DNA of 64,000 bases from NCBI GenBank assembly GCA_976226885.1, contig OZ320315.1, forward strand, positions 41,540,001 to 41,604,000, read 5' to 3'. The notes below the pieces were generated by a model that was not told where the DNA came from, made no database searches, and saw only the letters and a list, made by a program, of their open reading frames with translations. A program made the translations under genes and the position numbers. Of this stretch, positions 20,001-57,873 are shown piece after piece. The stretch comes from Iphione sp. A-MEVVRFRX5. Lineage: Eukaryota. Position 1 is the first letter of the stretch; every line of letters begins with the position of its first letter.

Positions 20001-22851
20001 TTCATGAATGATCAAGGTTATAGAAACATCGTCTATGCACCTAACTGTTCATCAATTAAAGTGTATATAGCAATCACGTCGCGAAGACAGCCCTTCGACT
20101 GAAAATACGTTTATACGTTCACTAATGAAAATAAGTAGCATAACTATACATTCGATAAACATTATAAGGACTTTCTTAACTTGGAACGTGTTCGCATTGT
20201 TGTTTTTACAGATATATATATATTTACATTATAGCCAGTAATGGTGTGGACTCGTACTTTATCTAATACATAAATATCTTCATACATAGTCGCAATATTT
20301 TTCGTCCGTGATACCTAGGAGACAACACGAAAACACACGGTATGGATAAAATGCAACATTACTCCATATAGGGAACTAACTTTAGACTAAAATACATGTA
20401 CTATAAGTTCCATAATACTGTGGGATCACAATATAGATACATGTACCTAAAGTGTTAATAAAAACGCATATGAATATTGCTTGGCAGAGTCCTTGCAATT
20501 ATTTGTAACACACGAGGCCCCTATCGTTAAAAAAAAACCTTTCCATGCTTGTCTCGTCACTACCCCCGTGTCCCTATAATACACAAGTCACGCATACGTG
20601 CCAATATAAGTCAAACACTCTTATTTACATCTTTATCCCACGGCAAGCATTATGATCTGATAAGATATGACGCTGCGTATCCTTTTATGAAGTAATTGTT
20701 ACACGTTTCGCCATCACTGGATCTAGGTGCTTCTATTAGCAGCTGAAGCCGGAATGATAATCTTCATGTCTTTCCATCATATTTTTCATATTTTATGAAT
20801 TAGAAAGTATGAAACTTGAAATACGATTGTCTTTGTTCGACATTCAACAGAGGTTTCCTGACAAATTTAGTACATGTAGTTACTTATACAGAATGAATTT
20901 TGTAGCTCTCAGAGCGGAAATTGCTGCATCTTGTCAATTCATGTACATGTGCAATACACAGGATATTCAAAACTTAATCCATAGGCAGATTTTATAGCAT
21001 TCATTTACCAGTATCGGAATGTGAGAGAAATAGACATCAAACCTTTGAATGTACGATGCATTGTGTACTAACATAAGAGGAAATGAGGAACAATGATCGA
21101 TGCGAGGCTAATTCAGGGCTGTCCTTGGTTGCCAGAGACGAAACAAGGAATGAAAAACCACCGGGGAGCGTGTAAGCGTTTATATGGAAGATATCAGCTC
21201 GTGCTTTAGTGTGCCTAATGTAGTGATAGGTTTGATATGACATTAGAAAACCCATCACTCATTCACAGGACATGTTTTCTCTGATATGAGAGAAAGGTTA
21301 AGTGACATGCACTATCATTGAAACAGTAGTCAACACAGATACAGGAGAGCTTTCAATTTAATGCCTTACATATTTCTGAGATATATACATGTGGCATGAA
21401 CACACGTCATGCACTTTAGTTTCTAGGTTAGCTGCTCTCAATGTGGAGCTATCAGAAGAACGAAATATTTGTCGGAACGGAATTGTAGTGGCATTACAGT
21501 GCATAGCAACATTTTAAAATGGTGGGAATATTTTCAATAACTCGGACACCAATGACATAAAACACACGTGCATGTATACACTATAGGCATGTACTGGTTT
21601 GTAATCGCACTGGTCGAGAGATCTTCCCTAGCGTCATACAGACGTCACCGTCCTGGAAATGAGAACACCTTTATGAAGTATATAAAAAAAAACCCATGTT
21701 TTTTCCCTACCTCTCCTCAGACGAGATGCACACAATGCCTCCGTCAGAATATCATGGGACTACATGTATATGGGTTGAAGTACTCCCACTGTCTACTCCT
21801 CCGTCCTTTCCTGAGATCCTAGCCGCGGGTGAATCCCAGTGCGTCTGCACGGCGTCTGAGACGCGGCGTTCGGCGCGCGCGGCTTTTATGGTGGTGGCCA
21901 GCAGACGACGAGCCGTTTTATGGCCGTGGTAGAGCTCGGTCGCGTCCTGTTTTAACTGTGTAGGTTGATAGGCAGCTGGTTTATCCACTGTAACAAACAA
22001 CCCGTACCTTCGATCGTCCCTAAACATAAAGACAACACGTATCCATTACGGGCGGCACTCGCCATGTGTAATACTGGGACCATGAGATACACGTAGTAGT
22101 CATAAATTATATCTAATACAAATGTATCATACACTCTGATGTAACTAGGCTTAACTTAATACTTTGCAATTAGTCATACTCTGAATTCACTTAATGATTC
22201 TAAAATAGTACTGAGCGACGTCTTCCTGAAAAAGTAAAAATATTAACCAAAGGGAAGTTAATAACTTTAATAAGGTGTGCAATCCAGCATCAGAGAACGT
22301 TTTGCCGCAGGTACACAGTTCATAGACAAAATTGGGTAACCTCTTTTTGTGATAGAATTAACTGCGTGTATGTTTAGCAAAGCATGTTAAGTTGGGAGGC
22401 GTATGTGCAGGGAAAAATATCGATATACACGTTTACTCAAACCACAATGCAAAGTTCTACTAACCTACTTAACTATCGATGTAAGCACAAAGGATATTTA
22501 TCTGGTCAAACTCTGATATATCTAAATGGCACTTTTTATTGGCAAAACAATGCAGAAAGGAACAAACATGGTATGGGGATCCATATACACATATTCCAGA
22601 AAAAGGTTCCTTCTACATGTATTAGGGCCGGGTTCCATACCTCTGTTGAGGTCCGACGTTTTTGATCCGTTTAGATCCGTTTCATCAATCATGTTGATTC
22701 TACTGGAGGGTGGCTTGTGCGTTTGGGTCCGTTGTTCATTAATGGTCCCTGATCGATAATTTCATGCAAATGGACACAAAATGCACAGTAGTATACCACA
22801 GATAGACTTTGGAGCTGGCATATTTCCTCTCATTTCCTCACCTTACTCACC

Positions 22852-23010
22852 TTTTCCAGTGACATTCACCAGTTTTCATACTTTTTCCAGTGAAATTCTC
22901 CAGCTTTGATACTTTTCCCAGTGAAATTCACCAGTTTTTATACTTTTTCAAGTGACATTCACCAGTTTTCATAACTATGTCCTGTGAAATTCACCAGTTT
23001 TTATACTTTT
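22852..23010. repeat. 31-bp minisatellite (~5 units)
   Basis: Unit ttttccagtgaaattcaccagttttcatact repeats with a 31-bp period. Confidence 0.8.
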
Positions 23011-23768
23011 CATCCATCTAGGGTAGATCTAATATAGATATATGATACATTTCACGCAACCTCAATGCAACCTCAGAGGCATAACGCAGCCTCACGGATA
23101 CCAACACAAGTATGAAAATCGGCCCTTAAGTAGACGTTTCCACATTAAAATAAGGACTTTTCCTGTTTGCATTGGACTTGTGTAGTCACCAGGTCTTCAC
23201 TGAGGTACTTTCCAACTTCGCCATTTGACTTTAAAAATACCACATGTACGCATATTTCCACATGAAAACAGAAGCCATAAAAAAAAAACTTTATTTCCAG
23301 TAACATGTTGAAAACTGCAGATAGGGTGGGTAGTCGGTTTTTTTTATACCATACAAATATTCCACTGAAAAGCCTATACAACATTTTCCAATAATGGAAT
23401 GACTATACTTCTCCTGCTTGGATCTTAATGAAACTTATGTCATATGAAAGCTTTTTGTCTCAACATGGATATTGTATGTGTAGCTTCATTTATTGTCAAG
23501 ATACTTGTATGTCAGTTATATAAAAAATGTTCCAGGAGGTTAACAATCAGGGTTGGTCAGGTTACTGGAAATGAAATTTTAATAGGCCTAATAGTGATGA
23601 CTATGCATGATTAAGGACCGGTTTCCATATATTCAGGTTTGTTTTACGTGTAGAGGACTGTCGAAAGATTTTTACCAATTTTTCTGGACCTCTGCGCACC
23701 TCTCCAGGGAAGTGCTTTCATAGGGTCCAAGTAGTGGCCTTCTAGCGGCCTGGTAGCCATTGTGTGTG

Positions 23769-23915
23769 TGTATGTTGAGATTGAAGCATATCAGGGGAAA
23801 TTGTGTATTTTTTCTTGGAGATTGAAGCATATTGACGGAAATTGTGTGGTTTTGAATGGAGATTAAAGCATATTGGTGGAAAATTGTGCAGATTTCATGC
23901 AAATTATATAATAAT
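23769..23915. repeat. ~40-bp minisatellite, same family as 59574-59835
   Basis: Units of ttgaagcatat..ggaaattgtg..ttttt..ggag; both arrays end in atgcaaatta..aataatt. Confidence 0.65.
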
Positions 23916-26751: not shown

Positions 26752-26860
26752 ACCATTGCTATCTTAACGCTATAAATGAGATGCAATATGTAAAAGGTAT
26801 TGGAAATAATTTTATTTTCTCACCGGAATAATTTACGAGTAAAATATGGTAGAAAAAGGC
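26752..26860 (-). repeat. Ngaro repeat B2 (3' terminal) with putative poly(A) signal
   Basis: Identical to B1; minus-strand AATAAA at 26816-26811; separated from A2 by a unique 62-bp spacer. Confidence 0.93.
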
Positions 26861-26922
26861 TCTAGGGAGATATAAAAATTGCACATTGGAATAATACATT
26901 GTAAAGGGTTGTGGCGGGTGGG

Positions 26923-27043
26923 CAGCGATCCAGGACAGCGAGTGAGGCCGGCAGCTTTTGCGCAGCCTTATATAGTCCAGGAGTAGAATATTTTTAGCTC
27001 GAGCTGACGCAATGACTGGCCATGCAAGCCTACATGCCGACAC
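26923..27043 (-). repeat. Ngaro repeat A2 (internal)
   Basis: Identical to A1; abuts B1 with a 2-nt overlap (ac), recreating the circle junction. Confidence 0.95.
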
Positions 27044-27150
27044 CATTGCTATCTTAACGCTATAAATGAGATGCAATATGTAAAAGGTATTGGAAATAAT
27101 TTTATTTTCTCACCGGAATAATTTACGAGTAAAATATGGTAGAAAAAGGC
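27042..27150 (-). repeat. Ngaro repeat B1 (internal)
   Basis: 109-bp direct repeat of 26752-26860; minus-strand AATAAA at 27106-27101. Confidence 0.95.
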
Positions 27151-27169
27151 CAAACGGTGAGAAAATAAA

Positions 27170-28156
27170 TTATGCATCTGTCAAGCTATGCGTAAGTAGG
27201 TTTGCCACCACACCACCCCTGTTCGTACGGACATAAGCATGATAGGCATTTGAAGACCAATTGCCGAAAGCTTGAATATGTCTCTCGTCACAACCTTGAT
27301 TATAGGCTACAGTAGCCCCTGTTCTTCTCAGACTGTGGAGAGAGTACATATGACATGGAAGGCCGAGGGCCCGTAATATGTCCTTAAGCGTTCTCCCTAG
27401 GGACTGCGCTGTCACGGGGCTGTTGTCCCGTGGATTGACCAGGACAGGCTGCTCTGGGTGGAACGTAGGGGAGACTTGAAGAAGTTCTCGGTAGGCGTTG
27501 ACCACACAGACATCAGGATCAGGAGCGGGCGGCAACACCACGGTGCGGACATCATCGAAGTGCTGCATTGTCTTGGCCCACCTCTGCCTGACGACGAGGG
27601 TGTTGCCTTGAATGCAGATATCGCTCCTAGTCAAGTGGCGCCGAGGATCGAACTCAGCCAGGGTCCTTGGTGCCAACTCCGACTGACGGAAGCCTGTATA
27701 AAGCAGAAACAAAACAGAAAAACGCCAAAACGGGGCCTCCGGGCGAGAGGCCCCCATGACAATGATCTGTCGAACCAGTGACAAATCCATGGGGAGTCTC
27801 CTATTAACTGAATGGTCTTTCATCCTCCTCAACGCCTGCAGCGCCAGGCCAACTTCTCTGGAGTCCAGTGCCGAGGTGTAGATCTGGTGATCCTTCAGAA
27901 ATTCACGCACGGCCGATACTGCATTCGCGACCGACGCCGGCGACCTCATATGAGACGACAGGTACCGGACGTACATGGTTGCATGCATAATCGTGGGAGA
28001 CAAGGGAGGAGCGCCACACCACCTGCAGAACGCCAAATACGTAGATGCAGCGCCCCGTCGATTAGCCAGCGTACCAGGAGCGCGAGCCGTTCGAACGAGG
28101 CTGATGGCGCCAGCCGCCAACTGCCGCAGTTCAGGATCTGGGAGGAAGCAGAGAGT
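27170..28156 (-). CDS. Ngaro tyrosine recombinase ORF3 (stop-to-stop frame; no early ATG)
   Basis: Catalytic R (TGFR), K (WAKT), HSLRR, W (GNW) and Y (HAYVR) are all intact. The track start at 28120 is TTG. The frame continues directly from the pol TGA at 28157-28159. Confidence 0.93.
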   Translation of the reverse strand, partial: TLCFLPDPELRQLAAGAISLVRTARAPGTLANRRGAASTYLAFCRWCGAPPLSPTIMHATMYVRYLSSHMRSPASVANAVSAVREFLKDHQIYTSALDSREVGLALQALRRMKDHSVNRRLPMDLSLVRQIIVMGASRPEAPFWRFSVLFLLYTGFRQSELAPRTLAEFDPRRHLTRSDICIQGNTLVVRQRWAKTMQHFDDVRTVVLPPAPDPDVCVVNAYRELLQVSPTFHPEQPVLVNPRDNSPVTAQSLGRTLKDILRALGLPCHMYSLHSLRRTGATVAYNQGCDERHIQAFGNWSSNAYHAYVRTNRGGVVANLLTHSLTDA

Positions 28157-30034
28157 TCAAATGTCAATAGGCCAGTCAAGTAGGGAGAGGTCTGGCGAGA
28201 CGGGCACCATGTCTCTTTCAGACATGAAGTCACGCGCAATGAACCTGTACTTGGCCGCTGTGTGCCATCGTGACAACGCGTCAGCGAAGTCCATCTGGCT
28301 ACCAGGTACATGCTGGAACTCAAGGCGGAAACCATTATTGGCCTGATGAAACCACAGTGTCCTGGCGCAGCTCATCAGGACGTCATCGCGTCCCCTACCT
28401 GAAACATACACCTGGACAGCTGGTAAATTGTCGCAACAAACTCTTACTACTTTTCCTGCATCATTACCGTCAGTCATGGCACAGACTGCCAACATTACAT
28501 TTGCCGCCTCAATCTGCGTAATACTCATGTGCTGCATGCCAACGGGGAGAGTCTCCGCATAGTACATGTGCCCATCAGATGCCCCTATGCCACTCAAACA
28601 TGCGTCCGCCACCAGGACCCGCGACACGTCATTGCTGCCAATGATTTGGGTACCATTCCACAAAGGGAGGAACTGAAGGAACCACCTAATGTCTTTCTTT
28701 GCTGCTGACCCCAGCCTCAAATGCCTACCCTTACCGGCTCGTAGAAGGGCTAGAAGTCTGCCAACGAAGAGACGTGCTGGCCCCACACAGCGCGCGACGT
28801 GCAGGAGTTTTCCTATAATGCTCTGTAGGGACTTCCTGGTGACCGTCCGCACATTCTTGAGTCGATCCAGATCCGTCAGGATTTCATTGACCTTCTGCAA
28901 TGGGACAGAAATTAACATGTCATCAGTATTGACGTCCACTCCAAGCCAGGTGACCACCTTCCCAGGCCCCTGGGTCTTATGAACCGCTTCCGGCAAACCC
29001 AGCTGGCCGAACAAGTCCCTGGTAATCATGAACGCTCGCCTTGCTTCTTGCTCACCCGAGGCAGCGACAATCAGATCGTCAAGATACATGAAAGCACACA
29101 CATCCCGACCAGCCAATATCCTCACTAGGGCATCCGCAACCCGCTGCATGTGGTTAGATGAGCATCGCGACCCGAAGGGGATGCTCACATCCACATAGAA
29201 ACGGTCCTCCCATTTGAATGACAGTAATGGCCAGTCCCCCGGACATGCCGGGAAGTTCTTATATGCCCGAGATATATCCATGGTAAACATGAATGTGTCA
29301 GTCCCGGACAACCTAATTTTTCCCAGGAGGGACTCGACAGTTGGCAGGGAGTGATCACGTGTGGTCCCAAGCACCGTATTTTTAGGAACATAAGCATTAA
29401 CTGAACACTCTGGTGGAAAAGACATATCCGTTATTACACGACGTTGATCAGTGTCTTTCTTCGGGCGCGTCATTAATGGAGAGACATGAATCCAACCATC
29501 AAATGGGGGCTGGTCAAATGGTCCCATCAATGCGCCAAGAGAAAGTTCAGTGGCAACATACTTACTCACGTGCTCCGGGTAACTCGTTGCAGACGGATGA
29601 TTTGTCAGCATTGCAGTATCTGTTTCTGGTCCCAAGTAACCAATAGGAAAACCAAACCGAAGCAGATCTATTAGCTGTGGGTCACCTGTGTCCTGCGCCA
29701 GATACCAAGACCATGCCTCAATATTTAGCCCAGATTGAAGTGGGCAACGAGCTGCTAGTAAATTCGGATAACCAGTGTTCTTAACTTTATCATAAATGGT
29801 CGCCAATGTACTGTCCATCACTGATACATTTGCCTGTGGCCATTTCAAACGACGATAGGCAGCCATCTTATGTACATCGCATATATAGGCAATGTCATTG
29901 TTATCATCTGTTTCACAGCATTTCTTGATTGCTTGAAAGTCAATTCTGACACAATTAGTGGAGCCATACTCACATTCGGTGTGCTGGTGAACCTTTCCTA
30001 TATGTGTACGAGAGGCCGAGTTCGTTTCGGCCAT
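28157..30034 (-). CDS. pol: Ngaro RT + RNase H ORF2 (625 aa; frame open upstream into gag)
   Basis: LNIEAW...LLRFGFPIGY, MDISRAYKNF, IPFGS and YLDD (RT); VADAC, ITQIEA, CCDN and HVPG...ADALSR (DIRS-type RNase H). No methyltransferase domain. Confidence 0.95.
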   Translation of the reverse strand: MAETNSASRTHIGKVHQHTECEYGSTNCVRIDFQAIKKCCETDDNNDIAYICDVHKMAAYRRLKWPQANVSVMDSTLATIYDKVKNTGYPNLLAARCPLQSGLNIEAWSWYLAQDTGDPQLIDLLRFGFPIGYLGPETDTAMLTNHPSATSYPEHVSKYVATELSLGALMGPFDQPPFDGWIHVSPLMTRPKKDTDQRRVITDMSFPPECSVNAYVPKNTVLGTTRDHSLPTVESLLGKIRLSGTDTFMFTMDISRAYKNFPACPGDWPLLSFKWEDRFYVDVSIPFGSRCSSNHMQRVADALVRILAGRDVCAFMYLDDLIVAASGEQEARRAFMITRDLFGQLGLPEAVHKTQGPGKVVTWLGVDVNTDDMLISVPLQKVNEILTDLDRLKNVRTVTRKSLQSIIGKLLHVARCVGPARLFVGRLLALLRAGKGRHLRLGSAAKKDIRWFLQFLPLWNGTQIIGSNDVSRVLVADACLSGIGASDGHMYYAETLPVGMQHMSITQIEAANVMLAVCAMTDGNDAGKVVRVCCDNLPAVQVYVSGRGRDDVLMSCARTLWFHQANNGFRLEFQHVPGSQMDFADALSRWHTAAKYRFIARDFMSERDMVPVSPDLSLLDWPIDI

Positions 30035-30049
30035 TTCTACTCGTTTTTT
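30014..30049 (-). promoter_or_regulatory. Putative -1 programmed ribosomal frameshift signal (A_AAA_AAC + hairpin)
   Basis: Heptamer 30049-30043 in the gag frame, two codons before TAG; GGCCGA/TCGGCC hairpin at 30032-30014; a -1 shift enters the pol frame. Confidence 0.55.
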
Positions 30050-31305
30050 GCCACGTTGCTGGAAGCAGGGCGTTGCACGGGCTGGCTGGATGGCTGGGCC
30101 TTGAAATTCTGCTGCTGGTTTGGCTGCTGACGTTGCTGGTTCGTATACCTAGCTTTCTTCGAACATGCGGCAGTCGTATGGGCATGCTTGGCCCCATTAG
30201 CTGCGAAACAAAAACCACAGGCATGCAACAGGATAAAGTGGCCCTCGCAATGAGACTCACCCTTCTCCGAACATGAGCCCATACTGTATCGCGGGCACAC
30301 AACCTCAAGGGCAGGGTCCGCAGGATCAGTGGGCGCCATGCTTATGCGCAGTCTCTCGTACCGTATGGCATCTTGGTCCCTCCATGTCAGGTCATTCCGT
30401 TCTATGCGGTCAAAAACCATATTTGACCACCTCCTAACGTTACGCCACGGTCGATGTTGGGCATCTTGCGCCACATGAAAGAGGTGGTCGAGAACGAATT
30501 CCTTATCATGGGGTAAAACAGCATGTCTATCCCTAAGCATGGTAAGGTAGGCAGCAATATATTCCTTATAGGTAATTTTTGACTTATATTCATTTCTTTC
30601 TTTAGCTGTCATGCTCTGCTCTCTCTCGACATACATATGAGGTCGGGGGATAATATTCCTAATCCGAAAATCAAAGTTACCTCGAGTGGACTCCAGCTGT
30701 GACATCCATGGAGCGGCTGCATCCAAGTATGCGTCCACGTACTGCTGGACGGCCGGTCCTTGTCTGAGCTGTGTTGGAGTCGGAAATGTCGGCATTGTCT
30801 GCTGAACAGGGTATGGCGGAGGCGGAGTGGCATAATGCTGGCTTTGCTGTATTGTCGACTGCACGTGGTATGACGGTAGTGACTGCACCGGCGGGGTAGT
30901 GTAGTTTTGAAGCTGTGTAGATGGTTGCGTAACAGCAGGTCCGCTGTAAGTGGCTGGGGGGTGTCCAAGCGCGCGCTGGCTGGGCACGACGGTGCTAGAA
31001 GTTGTCTGGACCGGTTGCCCACCACTCGTTGCCGGTACCTCGTGTATTTCGCCGGTAGACTGCTGGGTGGACTGGTTCTGAAATAAATTAGACAGGTCAG
31101 TTATTTGCGTTTTTAGTCCTGCCAATTCATTGACTGCACGTTCAAGTTGCTCAAGTCTGTCGGTGATTCTCGGTTTCTGGTTGGCGTCCTTCTTGTTTGG
31201 AGCAGGCGTCCGTGGTACTTCGGTCACGTCCTGGTCCGAGCTTTGTCCACTAGATTGGCCACCGGTTTGGCCATTCTCGGGATCGGGGTTCTTCTTGGGT
31301 CCCAT
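30037..31305 (-). CDS. gag: Ngaro Gag-like ORF1 (422 aa from ATG 31305)
   Basis: N-terminal coiled coil (RLEQLERAVNELAGLKTQITDL), Q/P/T-rich linker, and C-terminal C-x7-C...H / CxxC...H...C fingers (CPRYSMGSC...HACGFC...HTTAAC). The GTG start in the ORF track (31449) lies upstream of the predicted TSS. Confidence 0.85.
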   Translation of the reverse strand: MGPKKNPDPENGQTGGQSSGQSSDQDVTEVPRTPAPNKKDANQKPRITDRLEQLERAVNELAGLKTQITDLSNLFQNQSTQQSTGEIHEVPATSGGQPVQTTSSTVVPSQRALGHPPATYSGPAVTQPSTQLQNYTTPPVQSLPSYHVQSTIQQSQHYATPPPPYPVQQTMPTFPTPTQLRQGPAVQQYVDAYLDAAAPWMSQLESTRGNFDFRIRNIIPRPHMYVEREQSMTAKERNEYKSKITYKEYIAAYLTMLRDRHAVLPHDKEFVLDHLFHVAQDAQHRPWRNVRRWSNMVFDRIERNDLTWRDQDAIRYERLRISMAPTDPADPALEVVCPRYSMGSCSEKGESHCEGHFILLHACGFCFAANGAKHAHTTAACSKKARYTNQQRQQPNQQQNFKAQPSSQPVQRPASSNVAKNE

Positions 31306-31328: not shown

Positions 31329-31449
31329 CAGCGATCCAGGACAGCGAGTGAGGCCGGCAGCTTTTGCGCAGCCTTATATAGTCCAGGAGTAGAATATTTT
31401 TAGCTCGAGCTGACGCAATGACTGGCCATGCAAGCCTACATGCCGACAC
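31329..31449 (-). repeat. Ngaro repeat A1 (5' terminal)
   Basis: 121-bp direct repeat of 26923-27043. Confidence 0.95.
31346..31380 (-). promoter_or_regulatory. Putative Pol II core promoter in repeat A (TATA box + initiator)
   Basis: Minus strand TATATAAG at 31380-31373 and Inr-like TCACTC whose A (31349) is 31 nt downstream. TGCGTCA CRE/AP1-like site further upstream. Duplicated in A2 (26974 / 26943). Confidence 0.6.
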
Positions 31450-34400
31450 AATTTAGAGCAGTGTAGTTTCAGTGAATGAGGTATGCAGAAATACGGTCCC
31501 TGAGATTTGACTGTGCATATATTCTGAAAGCTTACCCTTGAACAAAATCGTTGCACAAATATCCTTCAAGCATATGTGTTGGTGTGATATTTTGTTTGCA
31601 CTCATGCATGTCATTCCAACAAGGAGCTGTATATTGGAAACATATCTTCACCACAGAGTTTCCTCTCTACAGGCAAACGCTTTATGGGTATACTCTCAGT
31701 TCATCTTTACCATCGCTTTAAACATTCTCCTCGCTATATTTTATTATCTCTCAGTCCGTTCCTTTTTCTCCCTGGCAACCGTCCATTCTTCTACCCTTGC
31801 TCTCTATCTGGTTTACCAATCTCTGTTCTGTGACCTCGTGCACGGCTTATCCTTAACGGTTCATGCACCCTATACCTTGCCAAAGGGTTTCCGGTCAGGT
31901 TTTTCATCTTCTAATCTCGCTACTCTTTGTTTCAGTTACGAATTTCAAACTACTTACTACACGTATTTTGCCCAAGTTCTAAACGAAAGCGCCAATTTTA
32001 GTGTTCTTTGGGTTTCCGGTTTAGTTTTCTTTTATCTGGACGTTAATGATCTTTAAGGCAAAAATGTATCACTTCTGCTGAAACTTAAGGAACACAATGA
32101 TGTATCATGTAAAAGTCTAGCCTTATTTAGTATGAAGATATTCACAAAACAATAAAAAATAAGAGGTTGCAAATGGCCACAATGGTAGGGCCGGTCGGGT
32201 CACCACCAACATGTATTTTTTGATAGACCTTAGTAAGATGAAACAGTGCAGTGCTACGATGTGGGCACTCGTCGGTTCTTACTCAAACACTTTAATTCCT
32301 GGTCTGTTTGCTTAAGTGATCGCCTTCGGATTGACTGTGTATGCACATGCATATATGCGCATTCATTTACGCGTCTGTCTAACCTTTCGGTGAATCGCAA
32401 GTTCATATCCGAAAACGGGTGGTTTCCAGGAATTTTCAGGTGGTTGTGTCCGATTGGTTTCAAGAACTTCAGGTTTACTGAACACACATAATAACACTTT
32501 ACATCGAAGATTCCACCTTATATAGATTACTTATACATTAAAACTTTCATTTATGGTGATCCTCTATGCGTAGTCAACAAATACTGTTTCTTCACTGTGA
32601 GATACAGGCCCATAACAATTAAGGGTGCTCAGGATATTGGTCGAGACACACCTACCTCCTTACAGAGCCCAAAGTCTCACATGCAGCATCGAACGACTGG
32701 AAGAGAAGAAGGGCGGGAAAGAAACAGAGGGGATAAGAAGCAGTGGGAATATCTGACACTTTCATTTGAAATTGACAATACTACTGATACTATTCCTACC
32801 AGCCAGATTTCATAACGGCAGTTTCATAAAGGCCAAACTCACATGCGCCAGGTTTCCTTACCTGTGTTTGTGTAGTTGTGAGTTGGGGTGCCTTGAGGTG
32901 CATTTGTTAAGAGCATAGTGTCTTATATGTGTGTCCGCCATCTGTCTGTGTTGCCTTATATTAGTGAACACTGCTCGATAACTCAATGCACAAATGCATT
33001 AAGGCACTTCCCCTCAACCTTTTTCCACGTTGTTACCCTTTTTATCATCAAATTCACCATTTTACTTATGTTTTCCTGTCATTCTTTTCCAATATTTGCT
33101 GCTTTTATTGGCAAATGCATCATCTTTCATACTTGTTCCGTCATTTTTGCTTGTTTTCGCTGCTTTCAGCATCAAATTCATTTTCCATACATTTGCTTGT
33201 TATTTTTGCGCCGTTTTCACCACTTTCATTTTCAAATTCATCACTTTTCATACTTCTCCTCATCAATTTTGCTGCTTTTCATGTAGCCTTAACGCAGCCT
33301 CAAAGAACATCCCCCTCCATGAGGCTGTGTGAAAACTGTTACGGTTACCAATGCACACAGAGGCCTCATGCAGCTCGATGCAGGTAGGGAAACTGGGCCT
33401 AAGATGTGTAACTACTGAGAAACATGAATATTAAAAAGAAGCGTATATGAAATGTAAAACGATAGTTGCAATTCCCAATATAGTACTTGGTCTCCATGGT
33501 GTCAGAGGAAAGTGGACTCTACAAAACTTACAAATGTCGAGTCATTACCTCGAAGGACAGCCGTAGATGCATCTTTTGAAGTATACGTGAGAAAATGTTG
33601 ATTGAAGAGATATTCTGTTTCCTAGATACGTATACCTCCTGGATCAATGCCAAGATTGCGTTTCAGTGACAGCAAGTCTTCAGATGTTAATCCAATTGAC
33701 GGTGCGACACGGTTTCACAGCTGTATCAGTGACGTGATTTGGTTCCAACCTAGGAGGCAAACCTGGAGGCAAATTATATGCAGTAAATTCACGCTTTATG
33801 ATATTAAGTCGTTTGACCTGTACACTGTATACTATTCGGGAGCACAGGAGTATTCTAGTGAGAAGGTATTAGTCATAGTAGGGCTGCTTGGCACATAAGT
33901 ACAGTAGACTCTTACCCTGCAACCACGCGGATTGGGCAACCACTCACCTAGTGCAACCACCTCTACCCAGAATGGGGTGAATTTCAGTACATTCTTTACA
34001 TGATGGTCTCTGCCTATGGTGACCACTTGTCCAAGGCAACCACTCGGCCAATGCAACCACCATTTTCAGTACAAAATGAATTGTGGTCGAATTGGATGAC
34101 CACTCACCTGTATCCAGACTGAGAACTTGGCGGTGACCTGTTCTCTAAGATGACAGTGGAGCCGCAAGCCCAGATTTGTGGTTGCCTGGGACAATCACTC
34201 ATCCATAGGAGGGTATCCAGGCCGAAAACTCAGTAGTCACCCCCATTTGGAGATGAGAGTGGAGAGTCAAGCCCAGGTCACCAATGTTGTTGGAGTGTTT
34301 CCAGCCCAAGAACTCGGCAGTAGCCCCTATTTGGAGATGAAAGTGGAGACTTAAGCCCATGTTGCCTGTATTGTTGGAGTGTTTCTGGCCTGAGAACATG

Positions 34401-35137
34401 GCAGTTGCCCACTTTGTAGGTGACATTGGAGCCTCAAGCCCAGGTCGTCCACACTGTAGGAGGTGTTAGTACAACCACTGCTTCCCTAAGAAAGAGCTTA
34501 ACAGAAGGTATCAACAGAAACAAGAGGCTCTTACTCAGCAAATTCAGCACTGTTAGAATTTTTTTTGGACTTCAACCCATCTAGTTCAGCACTTTTAGAA
34601 CTTTTGGGACATTTACCCATCCAGTTCAGCACTTTTAGGAGGGGAATGAATTTGATAGCTTGACCCCCTAACCAATGGCTTAGGGGACCACTCACCTTAG
34701 GCAACCACTTTGGTTCAGTCCCAGTGGTGGTCGCTTTAGGTGGAGGCAACTGTACCCGTATTGATGGAAGTTTATGACAATGTGGTGGATAAATGGATAC
34801 ATTTTTGCAAATATTCTGATATTATCATCCTGCAACCAAACTAAAAAGCAAAAGGTCACCCAAATGTCAGTTCTATGTGTAATGGTAAAAGAAAGGAACT
34901 GGTATTCAGAAGGAAAGTAAATGTTTATGACTTTGTGATTTTTTTTTCAACTGGGAGGGTGGTTTCTTTTGTGCTGAGAGATTTTTACCCCTCGTGAATC
35001 CCAGTCCCTGCACTCTCAATGCTAACTGACACGCATCATTGTTCTGAAAATCACGAAGAAAGGGTTATTTTTGCCAACTTCGCAAGTTCAAAATTTTATA
35101 AAAATTGGGGTCGTGACTGAGAGCAAGAGAAAGAGAG

Positions 35138-46756: not shown

Positions 46757-48004
46757 TCAGTAGATGAACTCCACCGGCTTCTTGGTCGTCTTCTTGATCG
46801 ATGAGACGAGTCCGATGTGTCGCACCAGGTTCGGCTCTATAAGGTAGCGTTCGTAGTGGCGGGTGCGCGCGAAGGAGTCCATGGCGAAGTCGAGAGGGAA
46901 CGTGGCGGTGCAGGTGGTGTCGGCGAGGTAGGCCGCCAGTTCGCCGGCCATGGGGCGCGGGTAGAGGATGGCCGGGGAGCAGCAGTCGGGCGCCCCGACC
47001 ACCGAGTAGAGCGACGGCGAGACGCGACGCAGCTCGAGCAGGTACTGCCGCCCGAGCGAGGCGACCACCAGCGCGGTGAAGACACAGCCGGTCACGTAGT
47101 AGTAGGCTGGGTGGGTGGTGTGGCGCCGCTCCAGGAACCAGCACGTGTAGAGGAAGATGAGACCGCCGACCAGAGCATAGCCGAGCAGCTCGCTGAGGTG
47201 GCGCAGCTCGTTACTGAAGCCTTGCCAGCGCTCAGGGTAGTAGAGCTTGAGGTATGCCCAGGGCCGACTGTTGGGCACGTAGTCACCGGCACTGAAGCGG
47301 TGCTCCACCAGGTGGTTCAACACGTGATGCAGGACGGTAAAGAGCTCTGGACGCGGCACGGCATCGTCCTCGATGATCAGCACGTACCGCGGACGGTACG
47401 ACAGCGCGCGCCGCATACAGAACATATAGTCTGCTTTCTCTTTATTGAACGTGTCTTTCTCGACGTGATCTGCACCTGCCTCGAAGCGCCGATAGCGGGG
47501 TATGTACTTGGCTAATTCGTCTGCTTCGGTGTGGGCCTTGGGCTCGGCGTCGCAGAGGAAGAGCACCTTATTGCCGAAAACTCTGTCGGCGTCGAAGACC
47601 TGCATGATCCTGGCCACCACCTGAGTGAGGTAGCCGATGGCCTTCCCCTCCTGGTTCCTGTTGACTGTGACGATGCCGATGGCAACGGACACGTTCCCGT
47701 TCGTCTCCATGTTGGTAAAATGGCGGAGGACGGCGTCTGCTTTCAGACCGGCCAGGTACTGTTTCGACAGGGCGACTCGCGCTACGTTCATGGAGGAGGC
47801 CCTCTGCATGTACTGATCGTCCGATTTGAGCGATATGTAGTGGTACTTCGAATAGGCCCAGTCCCTGCACGTTAAGGGCATGAGCACGCCGAAGGTACCC
47901 AAGAAGAGCACCGATATAAAGAAAGCTACCTTGGGGTTGTGACGCCTCCATAACCGAAGACATGAAAAACACCGGTAAATGTATCCATGGAGACACATCT
48001 TCAT
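46757..48004 (-). CDS. PGAP4: PGAP4/TMEM246 GPI-anchor GalNAc transferase, single coding exon (415 aa from ATG 48004)
   Basis: Matches remembered human PGAP4 motifs: FNKEKADYMFC, YVLIIEDDAVP, YLKLYYPERWQ, LGRQYLLELRRVSPSLYSVV..CC.PA.L.P and EPNLVRHIGLVSS. N-terminal TM plus two internal TM segments. The track start at 48019 is TTG. Confidence 0.93.
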   Translation of the reverse strand: MKMCLHGYIYRCFSCLRLWRRHNPKVAFFISVLFLGTFGVLMPLTCRDWAYSKYHYISLKSDDQYMQRASSMNVARVALSKQYLAGLKADAVLRHFTNMETNGNVSVAIGIVTVNRNQEGKAIGYLTQVVARIMQVFDADRVFGNKVLFLCDAEPKAHTEADELAKYIPRYRRFEAGADHVEKDTFNKEKADYMFCMRRALSYRPRYVLIIEDDAVPRPELFTVLHHVLNHLVEHRFSAGDYVPNSRPWAYLKLYYPERWQGFSNELRHLSELLGYALVGGLIFLYTCWFLERRHTTHPAYYYVTGCVFTALVVASLGRQYLLELRRVSPSLYSVVGAPDCCSPAILYPRPMAGELAAYLADTTCTATFPLDFAMDSFARTRHYERYLIEPNLVRHIGLVSSIKKTTKKPVEFIY

Positions 48005-49754
48005 TTTGAAGTGTGTCAAGAAACACTGGAATCACGCAAGCACTTTCTGACAGGAGCTGAGATTCAAGGCTTCACGTACAATCTCTCCAAGTAAGATGAC
48101 ACGTAATTCGGATATCACCCCGTGAAGTGCAACGAATAAAGTGTTGACTGGAAGAAGTGATGCGAATTCGAAGCGGCTTCCATGTGATAAATCATCTTCA
48201 CATACAGTTTCCTTTATTCACCATTAAAGAAGACATAAATTTGCGTATACCTTATACTTTGCACGGCGCCATCTTCTTACTTTGGTAACGAGCCAGTGAT
48301 GATTAAGAAAAGGAAACAGTCAATTACGAAAGCAACGTCAATGCGTCGGCAACATTTTCCGTTGTACAGGTGAAACGTTATAACGTGGATGACATGCCGC
48401 TATCTACCGCAATCACATACGACGGATTCGAAAGGTTTAAACTGTATCCATGGCCCGTTGCCGCAACCTTGAAGAGTGCTGGAAAGATGAACAACAAAAG
48501 AGTTACACATTAAATCAGACGAAAGTTACTTGTTCTCGGAATGACACTGTTTTATACTACACGTAATGACGATTATCTACAGGTAAATCCGTATGACTGG
48601 CAATCCAATGCAAAATGACAGAAAAGCCCACAGGTCCGCTTGATATACCCCTAAGGTTAAATATAGCAGCGGCTATATACAGTACCGATTAGTGCGGCCA
48701 CACCCATACCACGCCCGTTCCAACAAAACGCTGTATATTTTTCAAAGGGCAAGTCATGCACCATGTCATATGACAAAAACGAATCTGTATTAGTCAAATG
48801 TACGCGTTTTAACGAAAACATATCAGGAGAAACAGAGGACCATAACATAGCAGGAGAAACAGAGAACCAAAACATATCAGGAGAAAAAGAGGACCAATTT
48901 TGCATAAATATAATATGGTACCTTAATTTAATGTTCTAACACAGTTGGCTCAGTCCGATATTCATGAACAATATTATTTCCATTCAACTCTTTCATTTTA
49001 GTTCACGAAGCAATTTGTTCACTACTTCTGAACTGGATCTCACACTGCCGACATATTTATATATACCTAATTGACTTATATTTTAGGTTATGGTTGTATA
49101 TCTCCAAAACATTATTCTAATAGCATGAATCACAAGCACACGGTAAAAAGTATGCACATCGCTTTTTACAGAAAGTTGTGATTTCTATAGAGAAAGAAAA
49201 CCGAACAAATTTTTGTCCTAGTCAACAGAGCTAACAAATGTTTCTGACGTGAATAAATCAACTTTATTTTTTTGTGTTTGTTCCATGATTGTAACCACAA
49301 AAGTCAAAAGCCGACAATAAGTATAGAGCTGATGTGGTTCATTCATTAATGTGGACGAAATGCATATAGGAACAGCGCAAACTGGACCACTCGTCCAACA
49401 AAAATGCATTTAGACATTAAATAGCTTTTAATCAAGAAAGGGACGTCATGCAGTACAGGAAAAGGTTTGGTAAATTATGGAAATCAATGCTGGTCAGTTA
49501 TTTCTTTTTTTGCTTTCTTCCTGTTTTTTTTCGCAATATCCATCACCTTGTGGTAGTAGCCCAGTCAAATTTAAGAAATTATTGCATGATACACAAACTG
49601 AATACATGAGATGTGAATCCTACGAGCAGCAATGGGCAGTTGCGCAATGCACGTGTATGCATATACATGTATATGTGTATGTTTGGGGGGGGGTAGCTTC
49701 ATTTAATTGGGGGTAAATTGTCTCAAATCCATTTAATAATTTTTTTTCCATTTT

Positions 49755-52290: not shown

Positions 52291-53588
52291 CCCAGATGCC
52301 AAGGTTAATTGAAAAATTGACCCAGCAGTGATCCAAGTCAGAGAGTAAAGGTTAAATTGCAACCTCAGGTTGTGACCTCTTGTTATATAATGACCATGTT
52401 TGTTTGTACTTTTTAGATTGCTCCTTTGACTGTACTGGTATGCTTACTTAGCAATAAAGGATCAACTAAACTGCATCCCAAGTCCTGAGTTGTATTGTGT
52501 TACAATTTATCAATTAGAATTGTTACATTGTTCATGGTAGCATCACACACAGCAGGTGCGTTTGCCACATTTTGATGGTAATGTTAGTTCAGGTTTAGCA
52601 TTGTAAATCTATATTTCATGTTTATTCCTACATGCTGGTGGTAGCCACCTTTGGTGGTGGTTCTGGGATTGCTCCCAAATTAATATGCATGTAATGGGAG
52701 GTAACTACATTACACATAGTAAGAATACACAATACTTGCAACCTGACAATTTGTGACCGGTCATTTGAACCCCCATAGTCTGTACATTGAAAGTACAGCT
52801 AAGCACCTGGCGTGGATATAGCAGACTTATACTTGTCTTCCCATTGATGATAGAGTACTTCAAATGACAAAATCATACCTTAAAGAATTATATTACAGAT
52901 AGATACAAAAATACACACATTGTAGCTCTGGGAGACTCATGGCCAGAGTATCAATATTAGAACTATGAGAATTGTGACCAAAAAACTTGAGAGAGCTGGG
53001 GCACAAGAGCGAGGGTAGGCCAGAAATTAGGGCCAAATTCCTGAGTACAGATTGTTGTGGGTGCAAGTGACCTGACTTCCATAGAAATACATCATACTGC
53101 TTAGAGATTGGCGTATAATGATGTCTCCCACACCCTGTGTGATAGAAAATTATATTCATGTACATATATACATGTGCCAGTATATATGTTAGTTGCCAAG
53201 TCTAAATTTAAGGACTTTATGAATCGTGCTACATCATTGGTGAATTTGTCATTGGTTCCATGATTCATGAATGCTTGATCAAACTCTCAATAAGCCAGGA
53301 ATTCAGGGAGGGTCGCTTTGCTAGACAAGCACTAAAGAGGTTGTGTATGTGAGTACAACAGCACTAATTTACCAGTTTGACTAGACTTACCTGGGTAAGT
53401 TGACGGTAAACTGGAGTTAGTCCCGCTGTAGGAACGGAGTGGGGAGCAAGGGAGATATGATCGCTGCCACCTGGTGGACGACAGTATTGAAAGTGAGCGG
53501 CAAGAGCTGCCCTGTGTCGAAAAATACTGTAACGAGTGGGGAAGCTTCTTGCAGCAGATGCGAATCCGGGAGGGAGAGTCAGGGAGGG

Positions 53589-53713
53589 CCCTTGCTCCCC
53601 ACTCCGTTCCTACAGCGGGACTAACTCCAGTTTACCGTCAACTTACCCAGGTAAGTCTAGTCAAACTGGTAAATTAGTTCCGCTGGTCGTCACTACGTGG
53701 TGACCAAGGGAGA
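53589..53713 (-). repeat. DIRS internal complementary region (ICR)
   Basis: 53589-53678 is the reverse complement of 53363-53452; 53674-53713 is the reverse complement of 58133-58172; 5-nt overlap ttagt. Confidence 0.95.
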
Positions 53714-53906
53714 CTTGAAAGGTAAAGAATAAGACACTGGGCAGTATTGCAGAAAAAAGGCAGAATACTTTAATTCTGAATGAACACAGAAGCATGCAAA
53801 GGTTTTCAAAACGAGGGGTCTTTGACCCAGTGAACCAGTTTGAACGTAACAAAAAGAACCAGAGAGGACCCCTGTGGGGTCGTGTTGCTGCCTAGAGAGC
53901 TAGGAG

Positions 53907-54995
53907 TTACTTATGCGGAGTAATGTCTCTGCGGTAGTGTTTGAAGAAACTAGAGTCTGACCGCCACATCCCTTTGTTAAGGATTTCCTGCAAGGGCAGG
54001 CCTTGTGCGTAGAGTTTTGACGCGGACGCGCCTCTCGTGCTGTGCGCTGTGTAGACCGTCGTGTCCACCCCTGCTTTGGCCATGACTTCTTTGGCCCAAC
54101 GGCTAATGGACGTTTGTCCTACCGCTTGATGGGGCGGAATAACGCTGATAAACAGTCTACTGTTAGAGTCCGCTAAGTCTTTCGTGCGGTGAAAATATTC
54201 CTTGAGACAATGGACTACACACACTGCTGGGTCAGAGGTACAGGGGGTCAGTTTGACCTGATCAGGCCGTCTACCTGGTGCTGAGTGCTTAAGAACCGAC
54301 CCGTACAAAATAGTGACCGAACCGTCAGAGGAGAAATGAACGTTACATCTTACAATCTTATACAGTGTTTGGGTCCTCCCACAGGAGGCGAGAAGTAACA
54401 ACATGCTGGTTTTTAAGGACAACTCTTTTAGACTAAGGCTACTGTTTGGTGTCCAACTGCGTAAGAAACTGAGTACCAATTCTACGTCCCAAGTGTCTGT
54501 ATACCGGGCTCGGGGCGGTCGAACGTTAAAGATCCCTCTTAGTACACGGGAGGTAACGTACTGTTGTCCGAAAGGAACCCCATTAAGCTTAGGGAGAATG
54601 ACCGACAAGGCCGAACGCGCTGAATTAATGGTGTTATACCTAGCTCCTTGTTCAAATAACTGTACTAGAAACAACAGTCCTTGTTGTGTGGAAGCTCTAG
54701 TAGGGTGGAAGTTCTTTTCCATGCAAAAGGTTCGCCATCGGCGCAGGTAAGATCGATATAGCTGTCGAGTCTTTGGCCGCCATGAGCGGATGATGTGTTT
54801 TCCAATCTTGGGGTGTGGTGTCAGTTCACGTACTGTTTGTAGCATAAGCGGACAGCAACTAGCTTGATACTGGCGATATGTGGCTGGGAGCCCTGGAGGG
54901 GCCCCTGTAGGTTGTCCGGCTGGCTGTAGAACTTGAGTGGAGCCCGTGTGGAGGCCTCCATCAGCAGGGGGAACCACCATTGCGCTGGCCACCAT
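53907..54995 (-). CDS. DIRS tyrosine recombinase (probable start ATG 54845, 312 aa)
   Basis: SWRPKTRQLYRSYLRRWRTFC N-terminal helix; catalytic R (SCGR), K (LKHS), HSTR, W (GMW) and Y (KHY). Overlaps the end of pol in another frame. Confidence 0.95.
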   Translation of the reverse strand: MVASAMVVPPADGGLHTGSTQVLQPAGQPTGAPPGLPATYRQYQASCCPLMLQTVRELTPHPKIGKHIIRSWRPKTRQLYRSYLRRWRTFCMEKNFHPTRASTQQGLLFLVQLFEQGARYNTINSARSALSVILPKLNGVPFGQQYVTSRVLRGIFNVRPPRARYTDTWDVELVLSFLRSWTPNSSLSLKELSLKTSMLLLLASCGRTQTLYKIVRCNVHFSSDGSVTILYGSVLKHSAPGRRPDQVKLTPCTSDPAVCVVHCLKEYFHRTKDLADSNSRLFISVIPPHQAVGQTSISRWAKEVMAKAGVDTTVYTAHSTRGASASKLYAQGLPLQEILNKGMWRSDSSFFKHYRRDITPHK

Positions 54996-56788
54996 GGAGC
55001 CACCAGGATGACGTCGGCGTTGTCGGCTTGGGCCTTCCGGAGCGTCCGTCCCACCAGACTGAAAGGAGGGAAGGCATATGCGAGATCAAACTGTCCCCAA
55101 TGGAGTGTGAACGCATTGATAAAATAAGCTTCAGGGTCGGCTTTCCAGCTGACATAAGTGGGGACTTTGTGATTAACCCGGGATGCAAATAAGTCTACGT
55201 CGGGGGAGCCCCACTGTCGGACAATGCGGTCAAACAATTTATGGTTCAATTCCCATTCTATCTCAAGATTGAAGGATCTCGACTCAGTGTCCGCTATGAC
55301 GTTGGCGGACCCTGGGATGTGGGTTGCTTGTAGCACTAAGTTTCTTGCCTCCGCAAATTCCCAGATGGCTAGTGCTACCAGGTTACATTTTCCTGCTCGT
55401 GTCCCCCCCATGTTGTTAATGTAGCTTACTGTTGTTGTGTTGTCCGATAACAGTAGCACGTGTGCATCACGGGTGTTCTGGCAGTAAGTCCTTAAGCCAA
55501 AGAGAGCTGCCATCAGTTCGAGCACATTGATGTGCAGACCCCTTTCACTAGAGGACCATAGGCCTCCTGTGCTATGTCCGGAGTGGCTTGCGCCCCATCC
55601 CATGAGGGATGCGTCTGTTGTGAGTCGTAGTGTGGGAGACGAGAGTGTAAAGGTTTTCTGGATGGTGGGTATATTGGATATCCACCATTGTAACTCCTCT
55701 CTGCATCTATGTGTCAAGGAGAAGTTGCCCCGGAATTCCAGCCTCCCCGCTCGGCGAAGGCATTTTATTTTTCGCCTCTCTAAGTGTTTTAAGTGTGCCG
55801 GCCCATAATATGTTGCTTTAGTCAAGTCGTTTAAGGTCCCGATAACTGAGGCGGCTGTCCGTATGGAGCATGTGTTGTCCGTCAGCAGGCGTGTAACCTT
55901 TTGGGTTGAGCGAGTGATTTTATCACGTGTGGGTGTGATTGTTTCGGTTGTGGAGTCGATGTTGTAGCCCAAGAAGGTGATTTGTTGTTGAGGTTGCAGG
56001 TTTGACTTTTCCAGATTTGTTACGAACCCTAGTGTGGTGAGGGTTTGCATCACGGCTTGTGTGTGTTGTTCCGCCATTGCTGGCGTGTGGCTGATGATCA
56101 ACAGGTCATCGAGATATGCGATTAACCGTATCCCTTGTTCCCTGCAGTAGGCTAGTACGGGTCTGAGGACTTTGGTGAAGATTCTCGGGGCTGAACTAAG
56201 TCCGAATGGTAGCACATTAAATTTGTACACCTGGTCCTGCCATTGGAAAGCTAGATAGTCGCGGAACTCTGGTTCGATATTTACTGAGTGGTATGCGTCT
56301 TTTAGATCTAAAGATGTCAGGTAGGCATTAGGGTGTATCGCTAGTATTGCCGACTGAAAAGATTCCATTTTGAAATGATGTTTGACCAGGAATACATTGA
56401 GCTGAGAGAGGTCAATAATGAGTCTAAAGGTGCCGTTTGGTTTCGGTCGGAGGAAGATGTTGGATATGAACCGCGCCGATTGAGGGTGAATTTTGGCAAT
56501 TACCCCCGAGTTGAGCATCTTTCGTATAGCCTCACTTGCTGCTTGAGTTTGTTCATGGTTAAACAGGTACTGTCGAGGGATGGTCCCTTGAAAGGGCGTT
56601 TCTAAAAATTCTAATCTGACCCCTTGTACTAAGCTTAACATATCCTGGTCTGACGTGACATTTTCCCATTGCGGTACAAAGTCAGCAATCGTAATTTTAT
56701 ACGGAGCAGAAAAAGAGTGACTCACCCTTACTGGCCTTTGGGCTGGGGTTTCTGCTGCTGCCCCAGCCCCTTCCCGTTTCCCGGGCGG
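54821..56788 (-). CDS. pol: DIRS pol: RT + RNase H + Dam-like methyltransferase domain (open frame; no upstream ATG)
   Basis: LDLKDAY, LPFGLSSAP and YLDD (RT); TDAS, HINVLEL, SDN and HIPG..N..AD..SR (RH); DLFAS...AFPPF..V.RTL.K...LVAPWWP.Q.WFP (MT). The track start at 56725 is GTG, and the frame is open back to 56788. Confidence 0.95.
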   Translation of the reverse strand, partial: PPGKREGAGAAAETPAQRPVRVSHSFSAPYKITIADFVPQWENVTSDQDMLSLVQGVRLEFLETPFQGTIPRQYLFNHEQTQAASEAIRKMLNSGVIAKIHPQSARFISNIFLRPKPNGTFRLIIDLSQLNVFLVKHHFKMESFQSAILAIHPNAYLTSLDLKDAYHSVNIEPEFRDYLAFQWQDQVYKFNVLPFGLSSAPRIFTKVLRPVLAYCREQGIRLIAYLDDLLIISHTPAMAEQHTQAVMQTLTTLGFVTNLEKSNLQPQQQITFLGYNIDSTTETITPTRDKITRSTQKVTRLLTDNTCSIRTAASVIGTLNDLTKATYYGPAHLKHLERRKIKCLRRAGRLEFRGNFSLTHRCREELQWWISNIPTIQKTFTLSSPTLRLTTDASLMGWGASHSGHSTGGLWSSSERGLHINVLELMAALFGLRTYCQNTRDAHVLLLSDNTTTVSYINNMGGTRAGKCNLVALAIWEFAEARNLVLQATHIPGSANVIADTESRSFNLEIEWELNHKLFDRIVRQWGSPDVDLFASRVNHKVPTYVSWKADPEAYFINAFTLHWGQFDLAYAFPPFSLVGRTLRKAQADNADVILVAPWWPAQWWFPLLMEASTRAPLKFYSQPDNLQGPLQGSQPHIASIKLVAVRLCYKQYVN
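56705..56782 (-). promoter_or_regulatory. Putative -1 programmed ribosomal frameshift signal (G_GGA_AAC + pseudoknot)
   Basis: Heptamer 56782-56776 in the gag frame, 6-nt spacer, 9-bp stem 1 and 8-bp stem 2; a -1 shift enters the pol frame. Confidence 0.75.
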
Positions 56789-57873
56789 TTACTGTCGGAG
56801 TTCTCGAGCGGGCTCCTGTAGTTGTTCCCCTTATAGTCCGTTCTCTTCTTGTACCTGTTCTGAGTCTGGTTGCCTTGTTGACCATTGGCGGGCTTGTTCT
56901 TCGGGTACGGCTCGGACCGGTTTGCGAAGTTCCCGTTCTTGGGCTTGAACTTTCCTCCCACTTTTCCGCGGTCAAACTTTTTCGAGAACTTTTCATCGTC
57001 CTCCAGATCTTTGCATTTCTGGCGGAAGTCGTTTCCAAACAGAAGCTCCGACGACGGGGATGCTTCGTCTACCAGTTTTTTGTACGTATCCGGTAGTCCC
57101 ATCTTTACCTCGTGGCGTCTAATTTTGAGGAGGTCGTCCCTGTTGCTAGCTTGCATGTTCACCGTGTCTGTGATAATTTTAAGTGCGTCTCTAACCCACG
57201 GTTGTTCTCTTTCCTTCTTGATGAGGGTTTCTGAGAGCCTCGCTAGGCCGGTGAAAATGGTGTTCGCGCTATACATCTGTTTCTGGAGGGCCTTGTCACG
57301 ATTGCGTCCCACCGGATGCATGTGTAGCCACAACGCTGAATTAAGTTTCGGAACCTTCAACTGATCGATGTTTCCGGGTCTGGCGTATTTTTCGCGAAGG
57401 GCCTTAATGGTTTCCGTGTCTAGTGGAGTTTTCACCCTGCCTCCGAAGTATTTGGCGACTCTGTCATGCGTGTCCGCGGATACGGTTTTGTCACGATCGA
57501 TATTTTTAGCCAATTCTTCGAAATATGCTCCTTCGTCGTCATCTGGTGCTTCCGACAGTGTGGGCATATCTGCATCCTCGGGTAGGGATCCTAACAGTCC
57601 ATCGGTTGATAAGGTTGAGATGTTTGAAATCTGGTCCCCGAGCATCCGTTCAATGGAGGGCGCGAAGCTGCTTCGTGGGCTGGCGGCGCGACTCGCTCGT
57701 TCCACCGCCGTCATTCTGGCACCCAGGGAATGGATAGCTGACAGGACTTGGGTGAGAGTGTCGTCTTTCTCAGGTTGGTTTCTCGGTCTGAGGGCCGGAG
57801 GTCTGTTTTGAGGAACGACACCCTCGTCAGCCCCGCTAGAAGATGAGCTAGCTCTGTCGAGGTCTTCCGCCAT
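56728..57873 (-). CDS. gag: DIRS Gag-like ORF1 (381 aa)
   Basis: YARPGNIDQLKVPKLNSALW and SELLFGND motifs typical of animal DIRS1 ORF1; basic N/K/Q-rich tail; sits just inside the 5' ITR. Confidence 0.85.
   Translation of the reverse strand: MAEDLDRASSSSSGADEGVVPQNRPPALRPRNQPEKDDTLTQVLSAIHSLGARMTAVERASRAASPRSSFAPSIERMLGDQISNISTLSTDGLLGSLPEDADMPTLSEAPDDDEGAYFEELAKNIDRDKTVSADTHDRVAKYFGGRVKTPLDTETIKALREKYARPGNIDQLKVPKLNSALWLHMHPVGRNRDKALQKQMYSANTIFTGLARLSETLIKKEREQPWVRDALKIITDTVNMQASNRDDLLKIRRHEVKMGLPDTYKKLVDEASPSSELLFGNDFRQKCKDLEDDEKFSKKFDRGKVGGKFKPKNGNFANRSEPYPKNKPANGQQGNQTQNRYKKRTDYKGNNYRSPLENSDSNRPGNGKGLGQQQKPQPKGQ

Follow-up and report, generated by a model that had tools for sequence, protein, structure and literature searches.

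A stretch of 64,000 nucleotides (nt) from Iphione sp. A-MEVVRFRX5 (assembly GCA_976226885.1, contig OZ320315.1, positions 41,540,001 to 41,604,000 of the forward strand), referred to here as the window, contains an intact Ngaro-type retrotransposon of approximately 4.7 kb on the minus strand, from 31453 to 26752. Its three open frames lie on one strand in the order gag, pol (RT, for reverse transcriptase, plus RNase H) and tyrosine recombinase (YR). The features of the element are listed below by window position, together with those of a predicted splice that would place an N-terminal piece of Gag on the YR; ORF stands for open reading frame, aa for amino acids, L numbers for related metagenome loci and P numbers for related proteins and protein models.

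31329..31453, minus strand: split direct repeat A1, 99% identical to 26923-27047, with a TATATAA box at 31380-31374
30037..31305, minus strand: gag ORF, 422 aa, ATG at 31305, aligning with the gags of L001, L003, L006, L010 and P0047/P0088
30675..30683, minus strand: predicted phase 1 splice donor (GT at 30680-30679) following gag codon 208, 12 codons ahead of the WPH-like motif
30255..30263, minus strand: rival phase 1 donor inside the gag Cys/His cluster (GT at 30260-30259), from its consensus match
30043..30049, minus strand: slippery heptamer A AAA AAC where gag and pol overlap, in a register that fits a predicted -1 frameshift
28157..30148, minus strand: pol ORF, comprising the RT and an RNase H-like part but no methyltransferase, with TGA 28159-28157 as its stop
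28138..30680, minus strand: predicted intron of 2543 nt by arithmetic, which would remove the 3' part of gag and all of pol
28138..28168, minus strand: predicted 3' splice site in the sequence, with branch-like TTGAC (A at 28164), pyrimidine tract and CAG
27170..28137, minus strand: tyrosine recombinase exon, first Met at residue 57, from Pfam PF00589, conserved columns and a Cre profile match
27042..27168, minus strand: split direct repeat B1 by repeat comparison, with AATAAA at 27106
26923..27047, minus strand: split direct repeat A2 by repeat comparison
26752..26878, minus strand: split direct repeat B2 by repeat comparison, the end of the element, with AATAAA at 26816

Structure of the element

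The split direct repeats are ordered A1-coding-B1-A2-B2. The A repeats (125 nt) are 99% identical and the B repeats (109 nt) 100% identical over the core, with a spacing of about 45 nt between A2 and B2. The RT and YR were identified by Pfam, with an RT match in pol at E 1.5e-12 and a PF00589 match in the YR at E 2.3e-8, while gag was identified by alignment to relatives and RNase H by a motif. Gag has no significant Pfam match. By eye it has a heptad-like or low-complexity N-terminal half, followed by a conserved WPH-like domain from codon 221 and a C-terminal Cys/His cluster. Pol stops 42 residues past the RNase H motif, with no methyltransferase domain after it and no Dam match in Pfam. In conserved columns of the YR, the catalytic residues R157, K195, H274, R277, W300 and Y308 are all present.

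Ngaro-like elements of the order DIRS are described in passages of PMC13465315, PMC3783388 and PMC4157794 as A1-gag-pol-YR-B1-A2-B2, with an RT, the YR last and no methyltransferase, and this element has the same repeat and ORF layout. It is Ngaro-like on the sequence characters of split direct repeats, gag-pol-YR order, catalytic YR residues and lack of a methyltransferase domain. The inverted terminal repeats and internal complementary region that define DIRS1-like elements are missing, as there is no inverted repeat within the element. A slight -1 overlap of YR with pol has been described as typical for Ngaro, without being a strict definition; here the YR is instead in the same frame after a stop.

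The letters shared at the joins (31454-31448 in the 5' flank, 27048-27042 at the B1/A2 junction, and 26752-26746 at the 3' end) amount to about GT only. There is no evident target duplication, as expected for recombinase-mediated insertion. No second copy of the element was found in the window by blastn, and scans of viral contigs found no relatives of it.

Splice sites and their conservation

The pol ORF runs from 30148 to 28160 and is closed by TGA 28159-28157, after which the YR ORF (28156-27170, 328 aa) goes on in the same frame. The ORF coordinates agree with the single intervening stop described in the initial annotation. That annotation had placed the first in-frame ATG about 45 codons into the YR, but it lies at residue 57 (27988). 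A start at this codon would lose approximately 40 residues of the N-terminal domain, since the profile built from 32 YR relatives matches Cre over profile positions 18–165 (E 6e-11). The stop itself is where stops are commonly found in the family. Of 111 pol relatives, 90 carry the motif AD.LSR, and the commonest length of the tail after it is 42 residues (29 of the 90, with 44 within 37–45), which is also the length in this element. The TGA is therefore at the modal pol end, with one exception, P0161, in which the join to YR is an in-frame sense one. It is the only one of the 40 tails longer than 60 residues to run in frame into a YR N-terminus. In tails of at least 50 residues, R-S or R-T is present at positions 44–51 in 32 out of 46, compared to 4% of background windows. 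This would fit an acceptor read in another frame.

The predicted acceptor has its CAG at 28140-28138 and the exon start at 28137. With 14 out of 15 pyrimidines it ranks highest among the 269 AGs of the element, is preceded by an AG-free stretch of about 52 nt and, by eye, has a branch-like TTGAC with the A at 28164; the pyrimidine tract, branch-like sequence and CAG described initially are all present. An alignment of relatives shows that it coincides with the position where YR homology begins. Of 152 YR relatives, 44 single-ORF proteins with a sufficiently long N-terminus were used, leaving out proteins longer than 430 aa, without the anchor Gly/Ser or with fewer than 24 upstream residues. 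Offsets were measured from the anchor Gly, the MAFFT column of D7 covering only 4 sequences. In 31 of the 44 the position 21 residues ahead of the anchor is occupied by D, E, A, G or V, as it is in this element, and the residue just before that position is in all 31 P, A, S, T, L or V, which permits a phase 1 CAG (25) or TAG (6). These six account for 58% of the upstream zone, giving 0.58^31, or approximately 6e-8, if the sequences are treated as independent. The upstream zone is rich in L, F, S and I and nearly without K, R, E and D, like a translated pyrimidine tract.

The same position is seen in DNA. There are 11 related metagenome loci, 6 of which span the pol/YR junction (L005, L007, L009, L010 and L011, which lack it, were left out). 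In 5 of the 6 the AG with the highest score over the 130 nt leading up to the anchor belongs to a phase 1 CAG, at -47 to -62 compared to -62 in this element; the sixth, the frameshift-damaged L008, has its best AG at -55 in phase 2. The acceptor is thus kept in place and phase in both proteins and DNA loci. The frame offset from pol to YR is not conserved in these six relatives, being 0, 0, +1, +1, +2 and +2. In L002 and L004 approximately 300 nt separate the pol stop from the YR, an in-frame stop lies just upstream of the latter, and the anchor is not preceded by any in-frame ATG, an arrangement that neither readthrough nor a short-overlap frameshift accounts for.

The predicted donor is GAG/GTAACT, with the G at 30680, in phase 1. 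Splice sites were scored as simple match counts to a U1 consensus, and donors were compared in five related gags (L002, L004, L005, L008 and L009 have no usable gag and that of L007 is broken). A phase 1 donor scoring at least 7 out of 9 is present 10–30 codons before the WPH motif in 4 of the 5, with none in phase 0 or 2; the enrichment over random windows gives P of about 4e-5, for an interval picked after the sites were seen. In L006 there is a weaker phase 1 site alone, at -28. The residues encoded at the donor vary (GN, GM, RK, GK) while the GT is kept. The gags of L001, L003, L006 and L010 and the models P0048, P0128 and P0273, described below, begin by eye with a Cys/His knuckle, which would be carried onto the YR; the gag of this element has no such N-terminal knuckle.

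Predicted RefSeq proteins of 482–640 aa from Branchiostoma and Glandiceps (e.g. XP_078682739.1, XP_078682969.1 and XP_077986280.1) have a non-pol N-terminus on a YR. In P0042 (four 503-aa loci) and P0092 this matches the gag of P0047/P0088 as far as a Gly-Lys that lies 23 residues ahead of WPH, after which the YR resumes at an Ala, the outcome expected of a phase 1 splice leaving from a GGT codon. A long non-pol N-terminus on the YR is also present in six further RefSeq models, P0048, P0065, P0078, P0097, P0128 and P0273. When genomic read-through proteins are compared with two of these (P0145 with P0273 and P0160 with P0048), they diverge exactly at A/G and T/G, each a possible phase 1 CAG. 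That these models skip a long pol frame suggests that there may be junction evidence behind them. The place of the donor in this element roughly matches both the RefSeq junction and the phase 1 donors of related gags. When longer YR homologues were sought among 8000 candidates, there were none, which is weak evidence, the fusions having emerged later by another route.

It is very likely that the YR is made from an RNA spliced to 28137 from some donor. It is also likely, with somewhat less confidence, that the donor used is 30680, at gag codon 208, and that the RNA is translated as a Gag(N-terminal)-YR protein of approximately 530 aa. Arithmetic bears out the phase 1 position of both sites, the 2543 nt intron and the joined frame of about 530 aa that had been put forward initially. 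The spliced Gag(1-208)-YR interpretation is supported by the conserved acceptor, the TGA at the modal pol end and the conserved donor zone, and in relatives donor and acceptor are conserved with matching phase. Unspliced RNA would serve as the genome and as the template for Gag, with Gag-Pol probably produced from it by a -1 slip at A AAA AAC. The spliced RNA, without the 3' part of gag and without pol, would give Gag(1-208)-YR, in which the YR would take its start codon from the N-terminal Gag piece. By analogy with Gag-Pol, it may be guessed that this piece also helps to bring the YR into Gag particles.

The heptamer at 30049-30043 is found in the same register near the gag end in two of the five relatives, L003 and L001, and is missing in L006, L010 and L011. 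A hairpin at 30014-30032, downstream of the slip site, is no better than shuffled sequences (z -1.0). In L006 (2927-5449) and L007 (732-3818) the pol frames have long Cys-rich N-terminal extensions and are in register with the upstream frame after a single stop, unlike the -1 overlap of this element. The L001 and L006 contigs are circularly permuted relative to the element, with pol-YR before gag or with YR at both ends, which suggests tandem copies or collapsed assemblies.

Alternative routes to the recombinase

A number of observations weigh against a Gag(1-208)-YR product. The site at 30680 had been taken initially as the best donor in gag, but AGG/GTGAGT at 30260, also in phase 1, scores better at 8 versus 7, with a tie in another count. 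The donor of this element is 12 codons before the WPH motif, compared to 19–28 in relatives. For the acceptor, 13 of the 44 YR relatives do not fit at the exact offset, and three of the six DNA relatives (L003, L006 and L008) carry an in-frame ATG before the anchor. The RefSeq fusions are predicted models from relatives approximately 30% identical in the YR, and Gag identity is directly shown for only 2 of the 8; gag-profile matches are weak for P0048 (E 0.06) and P0097 (E 0.011), and the profile search found nothing for P0065, P0078 and P0128. In addition, P0074, P0108, P0047 and P0088 have pol fused to the YR, and in P0158 the upstream piece joined to the P0048 acceptor is something other than the gag N-terminus. 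The top pol match, P0161 (50%), reads from RNase H into YR without a stop, its YR ending after about 58 residues, and P0018 reads from RNase H into YR as well. Fused pol-YR forms therefore exist, perhaps in damaged copies.

Some of these observations would fit use of the same acceptor with another donor, whether 30260, for a product of 670 aa with the conserved Gag domain retained, the pol-frame site 29973, or a site near the pol end that would generate Pol-YR. The phase 1 site at 30260 is the top consensus match in gag, 29973 is in phase 1 in the pol frame, and P0074 and P0108 are models of a pol join. However, 30260 splits the Cys/His cluster and has no phase 1 counterpart scoring at least 7 at that place in the five related gags, while both the conserved donor zone and the RefSeq junctions precede the WPH motif. 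A different donor is considered unlikely. A Gag-Pol-YR polyprotein, made by UGA readthrough or by the frameshifting proposed for Ngaro generally, is very unlikely. The YR is behind one in-frame stop both here and in L001, and P0161 has an in-frame join, but the L001 stop is TAA, L002 and L004 have intervening stops, and frame offset and gap vary among the relatives. There is no slippery heptamer at the pol/YR junction of this element, and a polyprotein would leave the phase-locked acceptor signature unexplained.

Separate translation of the YR, whether it relied on an internal promoter, on ribosomes reinitiating past the pol stop or on a non-AUG start, is slightly less probable again. It could draw upon the upstream ATGs of L003, L006 and L008 and upon the many called YR proteins that start with M shortly before the conserved part, these being protein calls only. 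There is no ATG before the anchor in this element or in L001, L002 and L004, however, and neither the conserved donors nor the fusion models would be accounted for. The least probable explanation is a dead copy, in which a nonsense mutation put the TGA into a fused pol-YR ORF. P0161, 1 of the 90 pol relatives with the motif, and P0018 do read through in frame. Against this, a 42-residue tail is the commonest in the family, P0161 is alone among the longer tails in matching a YR N-terminus in frame, and the element has all three ORFs open and repeats that are 99–100% identical over their cores.

The window, known systems and significance

A second YR retrotransposon, DIRS1-like and apparently intact, is present in the window at 53360-58160 on the minus strand. 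Its gag is at 57873-56728, its pol at 56788-54821 with a weak Dam match (E 0.004), and its YR at 55085-53907, overlapping pol and having its own ATG; inverted terminal repeats were seen by eye only. There is a strong donor-like AGG/GTGAGT at 56725, just past the gag stop, with no standout acceptor before the YR. At 46757-48031, also on the minus strand, there is an unbroken ORF of 424 aa encoding a hydrophobic segment at the N-terminus, a motif resembling DxD and other hydrophobic stretches. It has no Pfam match at E 0.01 and we take it to resemble a glycosyltransferase-type host gene. Short tandem repeats are found at 22834-23010, 23759-23881 and 34208-34462, their periods being near 31, 41 and 84 nt.

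The published expectation for Ngaro elements is a short -1 overlap of the YR, read by frameshifting (Poulter and Butler 2015, as quoted in a passage of PMC13003380), whereas in this element the YR is in frame behind a stop and has a conserved acceptor. Passages of PMC3783388, which do not propose splicing, describe the Ngaro YR of all fungal groups as lying in frame or being shifted. The last ORF of retroviruses and of Drosophila gypsy, env, is expressed from a spliced subgenomic RNA without pol (passages of PMC4276936), and the analogy with env made in the initial annotation holds in this respect, env being the nearest precedent. The difference is that the product here is the integrating enzyme and would keep approximately 208 Gag residues. 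The other analogy made there, with a copia integrase made by splicing, finds no support, since the spliced subgenomic shGAG RNA of plant Ty1/Copia makes Gag only (abstract of PMC5580714). The likeness is that alternative splicing there sets the balance of structural and enzymatic products. Further parallels are the Branchiostoma and Glandiceps models, in which the non-pol part meets the YR at the equivalent of 28137 and which in two cases are Gag cut 23 residues before WPH. They differ in being automatic predictions, not named retrotransposon isoforms, with approximately 30% YR identity.

No report of a spliced Gag-YR RNA was found in the literature searched, although Goodwin and Poulter 2004 or Repbase reports could mention one. 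Likewise, a spliced YR is not described in keyword-matched passages of PMC7192593, PMC6681497, PMC9341512, PMC4157794, PMC9210276, PMC13465315, PMC12477816, PMC8547959 and PMC2632668. The element class is known, and the predicted spliced expression of a Ngaro YR appears new relative to that literature, in which frameshifting is the sole published proposal found for translation of the third ORF in YR retrotransposons.

A fairly likely extension, held with less confidence than the splice in this element, is that many animal Ngaro elements express the YR as a spliced Gag(N)-YR fusion through an old phase 1 intron, common to divergent families, which takes out all of pol and the conserved half of gag. 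The frameshift model would then be wrong for those elements, and uncharacterized RefSeq genes of lancelets and hemichordates would be spliced transposon RNAs. The conserved splice yields a precise prediction, and RNA-seq data that already exist for lancelets, fish or frogs would allow it to be checked. If true, it would account for the varying frame relation of pol and YR within Ngaro groups. It would mark one class of gene models that look host-like as transposon RNAs and define the real N-terminus of the enzyme, which is relevant to expressing these recombinases. It would also suggest that the integrating enzyme is loaded into particles through Gag.

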